Positions 456-36,841 of a DNA stretch of 64,000 nucleotides are shown piece by piece. The stretch spans positions 1,924 to 65,923 of the forward strand of contig CAYOQP010000004.1 of NCBI GenBank assembly GCA_964406145.1, given 5' to 3'. The notes beneath the pieces are model-generated. The model searched no databases, had not been told where the DNA came from, and saw nothing but the letters and a program-made list of their open reading frames with translations. The position numbers and the translations under genes are program-made. Origin of the DNA: an uncultured Candidatus Saccharibacteria bacterium (GTDB taxonomy: Bacteria > Patescibacteriota > UBA1384 > XYA2-FULL-43-10 > 1-14-0-10-43-13). Each line of letters opens with the position of its first letter. Position 1 is the stretch's first letter.

Positions 456-890
456 ATGCCAACAACAAAAAATGGGTTTACTCTAATAGAAATTATTATC
501 GCTGTCCTGATCATCACGACTATTTTTCTGGTGGCTCTTTTCCTTATCAACCCCAAAAGACAATCATCTGAAGGCAAGGACGCTCAGAGAAAAAATGATG
601 TTAGCACTATTCTTAACGCTGTCTATCGCTATCATTCAGACAACAGTAGTGTTTTTCCAGCGTCTATCACAACTTCTAATACTGAGATTTGTGATATTGG
701 CAAGGATTGTTCTGGTCTGGCGGACTTGTCAGCACTTACTGTCAAAGAAAAATATCTCGTTTCCATGCCAAAAGATCCAAGTTGCACTTCGCAAAATGGT
801 ACATGTTACATGATATCCAAGGACAGCAGTGGCCGTCTTACTGTTTCGGCGCCAAATGCCGAAAAGACCAAAATAACTGCCACTAAATAA
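456..890 (+). CDS. type IV pilin / pseudopilin with class III (prepilin) signal
   Basis: MPTTKNG|FTLIEIIIAVLII: the canonical G-F-T-L-I-E prepilin peptidase site with Glu+5 and a hydrophobic N-terminal helix. The C-terminal part has four Cys. I chose the ATG at 456 over the 345 start offered by the ORF track. Confidence 0.75.
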   Translation: MPTTKNGFTLIEIIIAVLIITTIFLVALFLINPKRQSSEGKDAQRKNDVSTILNAVYRYHSDNSSVFPASITTSNTEICDIGKDCSGLADLSALTVKEKYLVSMPKDPSCTSQNGTCYMISKDSSGRLTVSAPNAEKTKITATK

Positions 891-902
891 TTTTCAAATA
901 CT

Positions 903-2729
903 TTATTGAGCTTTAGATTTTCGAGCCTTGAGTCTCAGAGTTGGATCAAGGATCTTTTTGCGAAGTCGCAAATTTTTTGGTGTCACTTCGAGTAACTCAT
1001 CGTCTTCAAGGAAGTCGATACACTGCTCAAGTGACAAAATAGTCGGGGGAGTAAGGACCGTAATAGCGTCAGCGCTAGCCGCACGCATATTGGTTAATTG
1101 CTTTTCTTTATTGACGTTGATTTCAAGATCATCTTCGCGTTGGTTTAGGCCAACGATCATGCCAGCATAGACTTCGGTCTGTGGATGAATAAAGGTGGTA
1201 CCGCGTTGCTGAGCAATATTGAGGCCATAAGCTACCGCTTTGCCACTAGAAAAGGCGATTAAGACACCATTTCGAAGCTTTGGGATGATCCCGCCAGCTT
1301 TTTCATAGCGCAAAAACATTGTATTCATGATCGCAGTACCCTTTGATGCTGTCATTAAGACGTTGCGAAGTCCAAGTGTGCCACGAGTGGTGATCTCAAA
1401 GACAAGGCGGGTTGTACCATCACTATTTTCTTCCTGATGCATGAGGATACCACGTCTCTTGTTGAGCTCGCCAATGATATTGCTAGCAAATTCCGAGGCA
1501 ACGTCTATCGTGACTTCTTCGACTGGCTCACAAGTCTCATTGTCAATTACTCTGGTGATGACTTTTGGCTTGCCGACTTGAAGTTCGAAGCCTTCTCGAC
1601 GAAGAGTTTCGATGAAGACTGAAAGGTGGAGCTCACCGCGACCAGAGAGAATAAATTCGCCATTTTCGTCAGTTGCAATTCTCATCGAGACGTTTGTCTC
1701 GAGCTCTTTGATAATTCGGTCATGAAGATGACGAGCGGTGACAAATTTGCCTTCGCGTCCAGCAAAAGGTGAAGTGTTGGCATAAATTGAGATGCTCAAA
1801 GTTGGCTCTTCGATAGCGATAGACGGCAAAGCAGTCGGATCTTTCGGATCACAGACAGTGTCTCCGATGGAAGCATTCTTAAGTCCGGCAATCGAAACGA
1901 TATCCCCAGAAGTTGCTTCTTTGACCTCGATTTTCTTTAAGCCTTCAGTTATATAGATTTTTTCAATTTTGCCAGTGTCTCTTGTGCCTTCCTGATTGGC
2001 AAGGACGATTGGCATACCAGCGGTGGCACGGCCACTCTTGATCTTGCCTATTGAGTATTTACCCATGAAATTATCCCAGTCAAGAGCAGAGATCAGCATT
2101 TTGAAAGGCTTATCGTTTTCCTGGATAGGCGCAGGAACATATTTAATGATTGAGTCCAGTATCGGAGTTAGGTCGGCAGGAGCGGTTTCATCTTCTGGAA
2201 AAGCATCCCAAGCCTTGCCTTCGCGGCCGATGGCATAATAAATCGGAAATTCGAGTTGAGAATCTTCCTGAGCAAGCTCTAAGAAAAGGTCGTAAGTTTT
2301 ATCAATTGTTTTTGGAACATCAGCATTAACTTTGTCAATCTTGTTGATAACGACAATTAATTTAAGTCCTAAGGCAAAAGCTTTTTTAAGCACAAACTTA
2401 GTCTGAGGCATTGGGCCTTCTTGTGCATCAATCAAAAGGATGGCACCGTCGGCCATAGATAGAGTTCGTTCGACTTCGCCACCAAAATCAGCGTGGCCAG
2501 GAGTGTCGATAATGTTAATCTTGACGTCTTTGTAGTGAACAGCGGTATTTTTGGCCAGAATAGTAATACCACGTTCTTTTTCCTGATCGTTTGAGTCCAT
2601 GATTAGGTCCTGAGACATGGCGGCCTCATTTTCTCTAAAAGTTTTTGACTGCTTCAAGAGTCCATCGACTAGAGTTGTCTTGCCGTGGTCAACGTGAGCG
2701 ATGATTGCAACGTTTCGTATTTCCATCAT
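903..2729 (-). CDS. typA: translational GTPase TypA/BipA
   Basis: N-terminus [17 protein letters not shown]-domain motifs ([12 protein letters not shown]), 608 aa with EF-G-like domain II/V sequence. Confidence 0.9.
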
Positions 2730-30667: not shown

Positions 30668-31144
30668 ATGCCAAGAGGCCATATAAAAATGAAAAAACAG
30701 GCGATCGAGCCGGATGCTAAATACAGCAATCCTACTTTAACCAAATTCATTAATTACATAATGAAAAATGGCAAAAAGACTGTCGCCACAAAGATCGTTT
30801 ACAAGTCATTGGAAAATGCTTCCGAGACACTCAAGGGAGAAGCGATTGATATTTTTGAGCAAGCCTTGAAAAATGTTGGTCCACTCGTTGAGGTTAAGAG
30901 CAAGAGAATCGGTGGCGCTAATTATCAAGTGCCAATGGAAGTTAGCCGAGACCGCAAGAATACTCTTGCGATGCGCTGGATTATTGCTGCTGCTCAGTCT
31001 GCTAAGGGCAAACCAATGCACGAGAAACTAGCTTTTGAGTTGATCAACGCTTACAACGGTGAAGGCTCAGCCATGAAGAAGAAGGAAGATACTCACAGAA
31101 TGGCTGAGGCCAACAAAGCCTTTGCTCACTTCGCTCGATTCTAA
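30668..31144 (+). CDS. rpsG: 30S ribosomal protein S7
   Basis: 158 aa. S7 blocks include KNGKKTVATKIVY...VEVKSKRIGGANYQVP. Confidence 0.93.
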   Translation: MPRGHIKMKKQAIEPDAKYSNPTLTKFINYIMKNGKKTVATKIVYKSLENASETLKGEAIDIFEQALKNVGPLVEVKSKRIGGANYQVPMEVSRDRKNTLAMRWIIAAAQSAKGKPMHEKLAFELINAYNGEGSAMKKKEDTHRMAEANKAFAHFARF

Positions 31145-31163
31145 GAATTCTACACACATATAA

Positions 31164-31200
31164 AAAGAAAGCGTCCAGTCATTGGGTGCTTTCTTTTTAT
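31164..31200. terminator. hairpin + T-tract (bidirectional terminator between rpsG and the antisense lipoprotein gene)
   Basis: AAAGAAAGC ... GCTTTCTTT 9-bp arms, then TTTTATT. Confidence 0.5.
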
Positions 31201-31229
31201 TAAAAGAATGTTTTGATAGGTGAGTGGCG

Positions 31230-31259
31230 CAGGTGGCGGCGGTTGATTGCCGCCACCTG
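31230..31259. other. GC-rich perfect hairpin (11-bp stem CAGGTGGCGGC / GCCGCCACCTG), 3' of the minus-strand lipoprotein gene
   Basis: Perfect inverted repeat with an 8-nt loop. It lies 13 nt past the lipoprotein stop on the minus strand and has no U-tract. Confidence 0.6.
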
Positions 31260-31271
31260 TCCGGTCGTGGT

Positions 31272-31754
31272 CTAGTAAACCGTTGAGTAGGTTCCGTCCG
31301 GATTGGAACGGAACAGGTGCGCGTCGTAGCTGGGCTTGGTATCATCGGGATACTCCGTGGAGTAATCCCAGACGTCAGCTTCTGCTTCGACGAGCACAAA
31401 GTAGGTCGAGGTTTTGTTGAGGGCCGCGCCGTCCCATTCGGAGACGACAAAGATCCCTTTGCCACCACCGCTGTTGCCCCAGGCTTCCATTCTCACCCAC
31501 GATTCACGCAGGTACACTTTGGAGTTCGGGTTGGCCGGATCAGTCAGTCGGTAGATACCAAACTGATTGAACTGGCCGTCGCGGCGGTTGACATAGACAG
31601 CCACACTCGAAGAATCGCGATCAACGCTGATTCCTTCAATCGAGACATGGGGCTTGCGCCCCAAGACGTCGTCGAGGGCTTCAGATGAGCACCCAGCGAA
31701 CATCAGAGTGGTGATTGCGAGGGCGATAAGCCCAAGAAGCATGCGGATTCGCAT
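31272..31754 (-). CDS. GC-rich putative lipoprotein (foreign-looking), antisense within the str operon
   Basis: Signal peptide plus lipobox MRIRMLLGLIALAITTLMFAG|CSS. GAGGAG RBS 5 nt before the ATG. GC ~55% against ~38% in the flanks. No recognisable domain. Confidence 0.6.
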   Translation of the reverse strand: MRIRMLLGLIALAITTLMFAGCSSEALDDVLGRKPHVSIEGISVDRDSSSVAVYVNRRDGQFNQFGIYRLTDPANPNSKVYLRESWVRMEAWGNSGGGKGIFVVSEWDGAALNKTSTYFVLVEAEADVWDYSTEYPDDTKPSYDAHLFRSNPDGTYSTVY

Positions 31755-31871
31755 CACGGTTCTCCTCGTTGCCTTCGCTAGAGTAACTGCAGAAGAAGGT
31801 CAACTGATTATTTTACCACTATTACTCTTAAATGTCAAGTAGATATTGCTCAAAATTGCAATTTTATCCCG

Positions 31872-31971: not shown

Positions 31972-34047
<2,076 letters not shown>

Positions 34048-34173: not shown

Positions 34174-35352
34174 ATGGCTGCTGAATCATTCAAAAGAAAC
34201 AAGCCTCACGTAAACATCGGTACTATTGGTCACGTTGACCACGGTAAAACAACCTTGACTGCTGCTATCACAACCGTTCTTGCTAAGAAGGGTCTAGCTC
34301 AGGCAAGAAAATTTGCTGATATCGACAACGCTCCAGAAGAAAAAGAGCGTGGCATTACTATCGCAACTTCACACCAAGAGTATGAGACCGAGAAGAGACA
34401 CTATGCTCACGTTGACTGTCCGGGACACGCTGACTATGTTAAAAACATGATCACCGGTGCTGCACAGATGGACGGTGCAATTTTGGTTGTTGCTGCTACT
34501 GACGGCCCTATGCCTCAGACCAGAGAGCACATCCTTCTTGCAAATCAGATCGGTGTTCCTGCTATCGTTGTTTATCTCAACAAGTGCGATATGGTTGATG
34601 ACGAAGAGTTGATCGACCTAGTCGAGATGGAAGTCAGAGAACTTCTAACAAAATACAAGTATGATGGCGATAACGCCAAGATTATTCGTGGTTCAGCTCT
34701 TAAAGCTCTTGAGGGTGATGCCAAATGGGAGAAATCAATCGATGAATTGATGGATGCCGTTGATGAAGCTATCCCAGAGCCAAAAAGAGAAATTGACAAG
34801 CCTTTCCTTATGCCTGTTGAAGATGTTTTCTCAATCAAGGGTCGTGGCACGGTTGCAACTGGTAGAATTGAGCAGGGTATTGTCAAAATCAATGACACTG
34901 TCGAGATCGTCGGTATCAGAAAAACCAGAAACACAGTTGTTACCGGTGTTGAGATGTTTAAGAAACAGCTCGATCAGGGACAAGCTGGCGACAATGTTGG
35001 TCTTCTTCTTCGTGGTATTGAGCGTGAAGATATCGAGCGCGGTCAAGTTTTGGCCAAGCCAGGTAGTATCACTCCTCATACCGATTTCGAAGCTGAAATG
35101 TATGCTTTGACAAAAGAAGAAGGCGGACGACACACCCCATTCTTCAAAGGCTACAAACCTCAGTTCTACATCAGAACAACTGACGTTACCGGCGACATCA
35201 CTTTTGATCAGGAAATGATCATGCCTGGTGACAATGCCACCGTTAAAGTAACTTTGATTCAACCAATCGCCATGGACGAAGGTTTGAAATTTGCCATTCG
35301 TGAAGGCGGTCGAACAGTCGGTGCGGGTGTTGTAACAAAGATCACTAAATAA
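34174..35352 (+). CDS. tuf: elongation factor Tu
   Basis: [36 protein letters not shown]. 392 aa. Confidence 0.97.
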
Positions 35353-35371
35353 TAATTATCAAAAGAATTCA

Positions 35372-35698
35372 ATGTCAGTAGATAAAACAGCAGTACGTCA
35401 AAAAATTAGAATTCGCCTCAAGGCCTACGATCATCGCATTATCGACAAATCGGCCCAGCAAATTATAGATACAGCTATCCGCTCAGGAGCTGTTGTCGCT
35501 GGACCAATTCCTCTTCCTACGGAGGTCAATAAAATCACGGTCTTGAAATCAACTCACGTTCATAAGGACGCCCGCGAACAGTTCGAGATGCGAACCCACA
35601 AACGTTTGATTGATATTCTAAATCCAAGTCCCAAGACGATTGACAACCTCATGAGTCTCGATTTGCCTCACGGCGTCGACATTGAAATCAAGATGTAG
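35372..35698 (+). CDS. rpsJ: 30S ribosomal protein S10
   Basis: [40 protein letters not shown]. Confidence 0.93.
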
Positions 35699-35899
35699 TT
35701 TAAAGTTTCAGGGCCCAATATTTCTTAACGGGCCTTGGACTTTTGACTAGAAGCGTTGACTTTCTAGCTCAAATAGGGTAAGTTTATAGAGTTACACGAG
35801 TGATAATGATACTCAAGTGACGAGTCATGGATATCACCCCATCATCCGATAGGGTAGATCTAGGACATTTATAAAGTTGTATCGGAATTATTTAGACAT

Positions 35900-36235
35900 A
35901 TGGGCCCTGCCCACTGTCTGGATAATTCCTAACACGTTAGCCGAGGGCGTGCTGGGTGAAACAACAAAGCCCTCGGCTCGGTGCGAGACGTAGCAAGCTG
36001 GCGAGTGCATCTCTGCCGCTGCTTTCCTCGCATCGACGGGGGCATGATATACATGAGCGGTTGTTTACCGCCGTGACCCGAGCCATCAAGGCTCCGTGCC
36101 CCCGAACAATTTTATGAGAGCTCTGCTCTCACTCACTGGCGAGTTCGCCAGGAGTTACCGCCGCGAGTGCGGCACATCCGGTCGGAGACGGAAAGGAAGG
36201 TTTGCCCCTTTCCGTCTCCACCACAATTATAAAAA
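35900..36235. other. GC-rich, non-coding, highly structured island (candidate structured RNA or foreign-DNA remnant) between rpsJ and rplC
   Basis: No ORF of 60 aa or more on either strand. GC is well above the flanks. Several perfect stems are visible: GCCGAGGGC/GCCCTCGGC (9 bp), CGGGGGCA/TGCCCCCG (long-range), GGAGACGGAAAGG/CCTTTCCGTCTCC (13 bp), CTGGCG/CGCCAG. Confidence 0.45.
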
Positions 36236-36241
36236 AGAACA

Positions 36242-36841
36242 ATGAAATTCATTTTAAGCCAAAAATTAGGTATGACACGCGTCTTTGATCAAGACGGCAA
36301 AATGATTCCTGTTACCAAGGTTGCTGTTTTGCCATGTGAAATTACTCAGGTCAAGACTACTGAAAAAGACGGTTATACTAGTGTCCAGGTCGCCGCGACT
36401 AAGGGCGAAGGCAAAAAAGTGAAGAATGTTATGGTTGCAGAGTTCCGTCTTGATGAGATCGATGGTTACAAAAAAGGAAGCAAGGTTCTCGCCTCCCAGT
36501 TTGTTGCCGGCGATGTCATCGAAGTGACTGGCACAAGCAAGGGCAAAGGTTTCGCTGGTGTGATCAAGAGACACGGTTTTCATCGTGGTCCTGAGTCGCA
36601 TGGTGGAAATAACGTTCGCGAGCCAGGTTCTATCGGTGCACAGCAACCACAACGTGTTGTTCTTGGTCGCAAAATGGCCGGACACATGGGCAACGCCACG
36701 GTAACAGTCAAAAACCTAAAGATTGTTGATGTCGACAAAGACATAATTTTGATCTCAGGAGCAATTCCTGGACCAAACAAAGGTCTTTTGAAGATTTCAA
36801 GCAAAAATAGTGTTAAAACAGAAGTAGCAAGCGAAGAATAG
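36242..36841 (+). CDS. rplC: 50S ribosomal protein L3
   Basis: [21 protein letters not shown]...QQPQRV. Confidence 0.95.

Follow-up and report, generated by a model that had tools for sequence, protein, structure and literature searches.

The spacer between rpsJ (S10) and rplC (L3) in the 64-kb stretch of Patescibacteria DNA analyzed here (hereafter the window) contains a GC-rich island that is genuine: it forms a non-coding RNA structure, encoded on the gene (+) strand and maintained by selection, and it matches no described family. The structured unit extends from ~35884 to 36223 on the + strand (~340 nt) and is made up of the modules P3 and M2 to M8 (Table 1). In sister lineages the equivalent slot, defined as the variable stretch between the P1-P2 leader and the rplC start codon, holds tRNA genes, RNAs with the shape of a tRNA, or only AT-rich sequence. 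The reading favored here, tentatively, is that the island is a structure-selected descendant or replacement of a tRNA cluster in the rplC 5′ leader, where it would act as a cis-acting processing or stability cassette.

Fold and boundaries of the island

The predicted minimum free energy (MFE) of the island is −172.7 kcal/mol on the + strand, compared with −114.6 ± 6.2 kcal/mol for dinucleotide shuffles (z −9.4, 0/100), while folding of the − strand yields a z of −8.5. Its single modules have z values of −4.2 to −6.5. An earlier interpretation made from the window alone (the sequence-only reading) had named four helices in this region, and all of them are found: (i) GCCGAGGGC/GCCCTCGGC, which falls within 35939-35948/35969-35978, (ii) CGGGGGCA/TGCCCCCG at 36037-36044/36097-36104, (iii) the 13-bp helix GGAGACGGAAAGG/CCTTTCCGTCTCC at 36184-36196/36207-36219, and (iv) CTGGCG(A)/(T)CGCCAG at 36136-36142/36145-36151. 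The island recognized by that reading is real, although the 5′ edge assigned to it, 35900, is wrong and cuts through the 20-bp hairpin P3 (35884-35929).

The terminal hairpin M8 ends 19 nt ahead of the rplC AUG. Its stem (36184-36196/36207-36219) is followed by A-CCA (36220-23), and its loop of 10 nt has no T-loop consensus. The N-CCA after M8 is retained in all four sequences of the subclade that carries the island, with A, A, U, and G at the N position. In the MFE fold of the window, the AT-rich segments UUUAUAAAGUUGU (35868-35880) and ACAAUUAUAAAA (36222-36234) pair with each other and enclose the island; this helix is not conserved in the relative L084 and is probably fortuitous.

The GC content of the island is 57-61% in 100-nt intervals from ~35900 to 36200, compared with 33-47% beside it and a window mean of ~40%. 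The longest open reading frame (ORF) with a start codon in the island encodes 53 amino acids, in keeping with the earlier description of a GC-rich region without an ORF of at least 60 amino acids. A protein-coding island is rejected on this basis and because neither stop-free frames nor peptides are conserved among strain variants, between which indels shift the frames.

Conservation and covariation

Twelve relatives with L3 identities of 68% to 100% were obtained. Searching genomes and metagenomes with L3 yielded sequences that came almost exclusively from distant phyla and added a single family member, L091; the source of relatives was instead exact-protein look-ups. The island is identical in an independent assembly, L001, and occurs in diverged versions in three other samples, L002, L180, and L084, which excludes an assembly artifact. 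It is found only in the narrow subclade formed by the window and these four loci.

In both comparisons made within the subclade, the island diverges less than fourfold-degenerate sites do, a sign of purifying selection. Window and L002 are 90.2% identical in the island and 76.7% identical at the fourfold-degenerate sites of six flanking genes (348/454); the corresponding values for L180 are 75.9% and 65.6%. Over positions 35790-36245, window and L002 differ at 45 sites, only 20 of which are paired, though paired positions make up 67% of the total. The changed pairs comprise five compensatory double changes, four one-sided changes that preserve pairing, and four broken pairs, the last out of 154 pairs. 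A compensatory GC-to-AU change in L002, at 36139/36148, lies within M5-M7.

The covariance model R1 was built from the window and L002 only (36036-36224). It matches L180 (101 bits) and L084 (56 bits, E ~3e-13, a rough estimate) over its full length, and it has no match in the other relatives, L085, L171, L172, L177, and L178 included. In the four-sequence R1 alignment, which covers the 3′ half of the island, pairing holds in 97.5% of cells, and compensatory double changes occur in 14 of the 55 pairs, nine of them in M4 (helices 1-3) and three in M8 (helix 7); M5-M7 correspond to helices 4-6. Slid controls gave 42-48% paired cells and 1-4 compensatory pairs, and the observed values were reached in 0/500 shuffles. 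For the whole island, RNAalifold applied to a MAFFT alignment of three strains yields 112 pairs, 12 of which carry double changes. The stem of M2 is unchanged in the window, L002, and L180.

The sequence-only reading had suggested that the island may be a structured RNA and had proposed a search for covariation among homologous loci. The fold (z −9.4), the evolution slower than at fourfold sites, and the compensatory changes in the four sequences all support that view. The same substitutions identify the strand: all one-sided changes pass through G-U pairs, which would be A-C mismatches if read on the − strand, and the island RNA is thus the gene (+) strand. The loosely signal recognition particle (SRP)-like motif once noted on the − strand is contradicted by this result. 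Furthermore, what is conserved is the fold and not GC-richness, since the homologues in L084 and L180 keep the same helices at GC contents of 45% and 53%, respectively.

Contents of the slot in relatives

The slot differs widely among close relatives (Table 1), a feature that was out of sight of a reading confined to one sequence, which could not see the tRNA genes and tRNA-like structures of the sister lineages. Matches to the tRNA model in these slots score 44-62 bits against a threshold of 29 bits. L178 has the most complete set; its tRNA-Thr and tRNA-Gly lie above the gathering score, and its Leu(CAA) is an ARAGORN call under the Rfam threshold (25.6 vs 29 bits). In L171, L172, L177, L084, and L085, matches of 44-55 bits have intact acceptor, D, and T arms and an abnormal anticodon region, and the tRNA-shaped RNAs of these relatives apparently cannot decode. 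The Trp(CCA)-like tRNA of L171 has an abnormal loop, UACCAUG.

L084 links the two states of the slot, as it carries P3, one tRNA-like structure, and then M4-M8 of the window type. By alignment, its tRNA-like structure occupies the position of M3, for which sequence similarity to the tRNAs of relatives is not significant. P3 itself is common to the window, L002, L180, L084, L171, L172, and L178, with compensatory double changes in 7/18 pairs; it is not evident in L085 and L177, which also bear a cassette.

Retention of the island in relatives is mixed: P3-M8 is kept in one subclade, whereas L088, L091, L174, and L179 have no cassette. In a rough neighbor-joining tree of L3 and L4, the cassette is scattered over the family, and L088, which has none, is sister to L172, which has one. 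This distribution points to repeated loss or remodeling.

Table 1. Positions of features in the window and contents of the rplC slot in related loci
Sequence	Feature	Position	Strand	Description
Window	rpsG	30668-31144		
Window	fusA	31972-34047		
Window	tuf	34174-35352		
Window	rpsJ (S10)	35372-35698		
Window	promoter-like block	35756-35784	+	−35 TTGACT (35756-35761), 17-nt spacer, −10 TAAGTT (35779-35784)
Window	P1	35791-35821	+	hairpin; leader
Window	P2	35824-35866	+	motif GUC-AUGGAU-AUC-(variable hairpin)-GAUCUA-GGAC; leader
Window	P3	35884-35929	+	interrupted 20-bp hairpin, 5′ edge of island; fold z −6.5
Window	M2	35939-35978	+	hairpin, perfect 10-bp stem AGCCGAGGGC/GCCCTCGGCU
Window	M3	35978-36036	+	irregular long hairpin, outer stem UCGGUGCGAG/CUCGCAUCGA
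Window	M4	36037-36104	+	three-way junction closed by CGGGGGCAUG/CGUGCCCCCG, two hairpins inside; z −6.2
Window	M5-M7	36115-36173	+	three short hairpins: 36116-36130, 36131-36155 (includes CUGGCG/CGCCAG), 36160-36173
Window	M8	36180-36223	+	terminal hairpin, perfect 13-bp stem, extendable to 16 bp; z −5.5
Window	rplC (L3)	36242-36841		followed by rplD, rplW, rplB
L088, L091, L174, L179	slot			AT-rich sequence only; P3 absent
L178	slot			P3, tRNA-Thr(GGU) (55 bits), tRNA-Gly(GCC) (62 bits), Leu(CAA) call, terminal hairpin
L177	slot	705-869 (tRNA with insertion)		canonical tRNA-Ile(GAU); tRNA with ~81-nt insertion
L171	slot	1143-1275 (tRNA with insertion)		tRNA with 59-66-nt insertion (55.3 bits); Trp(CCA)-like tRNA (59.3 bits)
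L172	slot	1353-1504		tRNA-model match (47.1 bits), 78-84-nt insertion
L085	slot	2250-2325		tRNA-model match, anticodon loop of 6 nt
L084	slot	789-868		tRNA-model match, anticodon loop of 8 nt

Exclusion of known RNA families

A search of both strands of 35300-36600 against Rfam 15 at E ≤ 10 returned only fragments at chance level, and at the gathering threshold no family was found in the entire 64-kb window. RNase P, SRP, 6S, and other housekeeping RNAs are rejected on this basis, in agreement with the earlier failure to match RNase P, transfer-messenger RNA (tmRNA), or SRP by eye. A tmRNA is likewise rejected, as neither ARAGORN nor the Rfam tmRNA families (E ≤ 10) give a match; the 3′ end of the island, ...CUCCACCA, pairs locally inside hairpin M8, without a distant 5′ partner strand. 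An intrinsic terminator or attenuator is rejected because M8 has no U tract and is followed by ACCACAAUUAUAAAAAAG. No tRNA gene was found anywhere in the window.

A tRNA split by a group I intron was also considered. Group I introns are frequent in the tRNA genes of Patescibacteria, where reported lengths are 184-894 nt, and some of those in tRNA-Thr(GGU) are divergent and missed by RF00028 (PMC13011429). The resemblance to the present locus lies in the shared phylum, the presence in relatives of a tRNA-Thr(GGU) at the locus and of anticodon-loop insertions, and the failure of standard tools to detect such elements. The island has no match to RF00028 (subject to the divergent tRNA-Thr introns that this model misses) or to related models, and ARAGORN in intron mode finds no split tRNA; no T arm lies downstream of the island, and neither flank has a D or T arm. 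Group I introns do not explain the island, because the insertions in relatives, at 59-84 nt, are too short for this class and the window has no tRNA exons.

The promoter-like block and the P1-P2 leader

Each of the 12 relatives has the same arrangement at the start of the spacer: a hairpin after rpsJ, a promoter-like block past this hairpin, and a leader composed of P1 and P2. All 12 relatives examined retain the −35 TTGAC together with a −10 of the form TAnnnT. A consensus promoter scanner did not call the block, whose −10 matches at only 3/6 positions, and its function as a promoter is putative. For P2, RNAalifold on nine sequences yields 15 pairs, 10 of which have compensatory double changes. 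The leader model R2 has one match in the window, at 35794-35873 (77 bits), and among 100 loci its matches are otherwise restricted to members of this Patescibacteria family; no Rfam family matches P1-P2. The P1-P2 segment (35791-35866) is thereby a family-wide candidate cis-regulatory element that lies outside the region first flagged. The sequence-only reading had offered a cis-regulatory leader as one identity of the island. The island does fall within the leader region 5′ of the ribosomal-protein operon that starts with rplC, but the leader conserved across the family is P1-P2, upstream of it.

In E. coli, the S10 leader is bound by L4. Ribosomal-protein autoregulatory leaders of this kind resemble the present locus in having a structured RNA in the 5′ untranslated region (UTR) upstream of rplC-rplD, and P1-P2 shows the conservation pattern expected of one. 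The island itself differs from them in being lineage-restricted and dispensable in relatives, and it resembles no described leader in sequence or by model. A candidate L4 leader in Archaeoglobi lies directly upstream of rplC (PMC7247131) and is a precedent for P1-P2, not for the island. Taken with its restriction to this Patescibacteria family, P1-P2 is a good candidate for a new, family-specific ribosomal-protein leader, possibly one that responds to L4.

A proposed cis-acting cassette

Under the favored reading, rpsJ would be transcribed together with tuf, and the rplC unit would begin separately at the promoter-like block and the P1-P2 leader. The slot between this leader and the rplC AUG is bounded in most cassette-bearing relatives by P3 and a long terminal hairpin. 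In sister lineages it holds tRNA genes, which would be co-transcribed, or non-decoding tRNA-shaped RNAs, or nothing, and in the window subclade it holds the helix set, whose RNA fold would be retained because it still serves in cis. Cleavage by endonucleases of the RNase P, RNase Z, or RNase III kind would then separate the leader from the mRNA, and the rplC message would start at or just past M8 with its stem and N-CCA. M8 may either protect the 5′ end of the mature rplC mRNA or act as a minihelix-type cleavage signal.

Several features are consistent with this proposal. The island is most likely transcribed within the 5′ region of the rplC operon, either from the promoter-like block or by read-through from tuf-rpsJ; co-transcription with rplC is suggested because M8 lies only 19 nt from the AUG and no terminator-like site was found on the + strand of 35300-36400. 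Intact acceptor, D, and T arms combined with broken anticodon arms, as seen in relatives, form the pattern expected if recognition of the acceptor and elbow, rather than decoding, were selected. The enzymes that would read these parts are RNase P, RNase Z, and the CCA-adding enzyme. A role of the island in processing or stability is a model built on these features, and it is the position of the island that suggests its descent from tRNAs.

A number of observations weigh against this reading. The island is not recognizable as a tRNA: there is no Rfam tRNA match at E ≤ 10, ARAGORN calls none even in intron mode, and Smith-Waterman comparison with nine tRNAs or tRNA-like structures of relatives finds no significant similarity (z from −1.7 to 2.0 when scored against 300 dinucleotide shuffles). 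M4-M8 occur only in the window subclade, and alignment did not establish homology of the terminal hairpins across subclades. An RNase P substrate would require a single-stranded CCA, and that of M8 may be paired, because a GGU 5′ of M8 is able to pair with the ACC of ACCA. The cassette is dispensable for rplC expression, since the close relatives L088, L091, L174, and L179 do without any. Finally, the covariation is drawn from four distinct sequences, in an alignment that was fitted to the model and leans towards its structure.

If the favored reading is true, the locus represents one stage of stable-RNA gene turnover within an essential operon of a bacterium with an ultra-small genome, in which one orthologous slot holds canonical tRNAs, non-decoding tRNA shapes, a structured RNA without tRNA signatures, or an empty site. 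This evolutionary series in relatives is the most interesting aspect of the locus, above the window copy alone. It would allow a direct test of the idea that tRNA-like folds have been put to new use in bacteria as signals for mRNA processing or stability, a use documented so far mainly in organelles and eukaryotic nuclei. The well-supported, family-specific candidate leader found upstream of rplC adds to this interest, and annotators would otherwise leave the rpsJ-rplC spacer blank or take it for foreign DNA.

Alternative explanations

In an unlikely alternative, the island is the source of an independent trans-acting small RNA of a new class that is cut from the leader transcript, with the operon as a mere transcription vehicle, the part it also plays for the tRNAs of sister lineages. 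One or several products may be envisaged, the candidates being M4-M8 (~190 nt) and P3-M8 (~340 nt). A conserved structure with covariation in 14/55 pairs, slower evolution than at synonymous sites, and the lack of an Rfam match would suit such an RNA, as would the stable RNAs (tRNAs) hosted by the slot in relatives and the stable-RNA-like N-CCA conserved at the 3′ end of M8. However, the element is narrowly confined to four distinct sequences from a single subclade, M2-M3 and M5-M7 are replaced or rearranged even in L084, and no second promoter or terminator provides a boundary. Moreover, no long conserved single-stranded stretch hints at a base-pairing target, and the available DNA of relatives without the island gives no sign of a substitute. 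It is quite unlikely that the island is instead an extension of the ribosomal-protein leader, with junctions that bind L4 or L3 or modulate P1-P2 and thereby exert autogenous feedback on the rplC operon. Its location in the 5′ UTR of the rplC-rplD operon, right behind a strongly covarying leader, would fit this role, L4-type leaders are known upstream of S10/rplC operons, and the structure is under selection. Against it stand the several family members that keep the leader and lack the island, the absence of a match to any known ribosomal leader model, and the tRNAs that take the place of the island elsewhere in the family, a replacement that leaves no room for the island as the essential regulatory site.

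The readings in which the island has no function or comes from foreign DNA fit the constraint and covariation data most poorly. That the island is a decaying, functionless relic of tRNA pseudogenes and spacers, whose GC content and helices have not yet been erased by mutation, is improbable. The patchiness of the cassette, the variable slot contents among close relatives, the loss of detectable tRNA features, and the 4/154 broken pairs in L002 are all compatible with decay. Yet the island evolves more slowly than fourfold sites, although mutation pressure in an AT-rich genome would be expected to erode GC-rich sequence quickly; its stems are depleted of substitutions, compensatory double changes far exceed both controls, and the helices persist in L084 despite a fall in GC from 59% to 45%. 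Foreign or mobile DNA, such as a miniature inverted-repeat transposable element (MITE)-like sequence or the remnant of an integrative element beside a tRNA locus, related to the other GC-rich islet of the window, is very improbable. The contrast between a GC-rich island and an AT-rich host, the insertion/deletion polymorphism among relatives, and the hairpins at both ends of the island could be taken in its favor, as could the GC-rich islet with a foreign-looking lipoprotein ORF between rpsG and fusA; tRNA loci are also common integration sites. A mobile or repeat element is nonetheless rejected, as the 64 kb of the genome that were searched contain no further copy and the collections of phages, plasmids, and viruses gave no match. 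At the indel between L172 and L088, neither a clear target-site duplication nor a convincing terminal inverted repeat was seen, and the island has no sequence in common with the islet at 31200-31800. The suggestion of foreign DNA in the sequence-only reading finds no support in these results. The homologues, the L084 copy among them, are much less GC-rich (45-53%) and keep the same helices, and it is structure, not sequence, that is conserved.

Parallels among known systems

The closest bacterial parallel is the E. coli unit thrU-tyrU-glyT-thrT(GGU)-tufB, in which, by annotation, a tRNA-Thr(GGU) and a tRNA-Gly lie directly upstream of a translation-factor gene. Both loci place stable-RNA genes between a promoter and an ORF of the translation machinery on the same strand, and L178 has Thr(GGU), Gly(GCC), and the sub-threshold Leu(CAA) just upstream of rplC. 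In both, the 5′ end of the mRNA must come from tRNA processing, provided that co-transcription, which is inferred for the present locus, holds. The window differs from the E. coli unit in having no recognizable tRNA, in its extra conserved leader motif, and in the downstream genes, which are the rplC-led S10 cluster and not tuf. A tRNA or tRNA shape between the promoter-like block and the ORF, on the same strand, is present in L178, L177, L171, L172, L084, and L085, and the window counterpart is only the minihelix-like M8 with its N-CCA.

A second parallel is provided by the t-elements of plant mitochondria, tRNA-like structures that define the termini of mRNAs (Forner et al. 2007, PMC1920247), and by processing signals of the mascRNA type. 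These share with the present family the occurrence of non-decoding tRNA-shaped RNAs beside protein-coding transcripts. L084, L085, L171, and L172 keep acceptor, D, and T arms (47-55 bits) and have anticodon loops of the wrong size or insertions of 59-84 nt, while the stem of M8 with N-CCA in the window resembles an acceptor/T-arm minihelix. Unlike t-elements, the elements described here are bacterial and known from sequence, the island fails the tRNA model, and M8 has a 10-nt loop and a CCA that is possibly partly paired. A more far-reaching and doubtful proposition is that, in this Patescibacteria family, a tRNA cluster in a ribosomal-protein operon has been turned into non-decoding, tRNA-derived modules, i.e., bacterial "t-elements", or into new stable small RNAs. 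Such modules, including tRNA shapes whose anticodon arms are crippled or carry insertions and, in the window subclade, the ~340-nt multi-junction RNA, would be under selection to punctuate, stabilize, or regulate the rplC transcript.

Gene order and neighboring sequence

The window contains the str/S10/spc ribosomal gene cluster of Patescibacteria, and its closest named homologues are annotated as "Patescibacteria group bacterium". As first reported, rpsJ and rplC are separated by a spacer of 543 nt, and the gene coordinates agree with this value. The accompanying premise that the S10 and L3 genes are normally adjacent does not hold for this Patescibacteria family, in which the promoter-like block and the leader always intervene. 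The start of rpsJ lies 19 nt past tuf (35352-35372), and rpsJ is followed by a hairpin of its own, GGGCCC...GGGCC at ~35711-35735, ahead of the rplC promoter-like block. S10 in this family thus appears to be part of the tuf transcription unit rather than of an "S10 operon".

The 19 nt ahead of the rplC AUG (36224-36241, ACAAUUAUAAAAAAGAACA) are A-rich and contain no Shine-Dalgarno-like sequence; the sole GGAG-type sequence nearby is sequestered in the stem of M8, 58 nt upstream. In the closest GTDB species representatives, L005 and L006, whose L3 is only ~50% identical, rplC has no rpsJ ahead of it. Upstream of rplC, L005 (1-2500) has ORFs for small membrane proteins, and the ~950 nt in L006 (1-970) contain only two short ORFs of 50-51 amino acids.

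Between rpsG and fusA, at 31200-31800 of the window, lies a second islet of high GC content (55-57%). Its − strand ORF of 161 amino acids (31272-31757) encodes a lipoprotein signal peptide and a lipobox (LMFAGC), has no Pfam match, and is followed by a GC hairpin at ~31225-31250. The islet appears to be an acquired gene that has inserted into the str operon.

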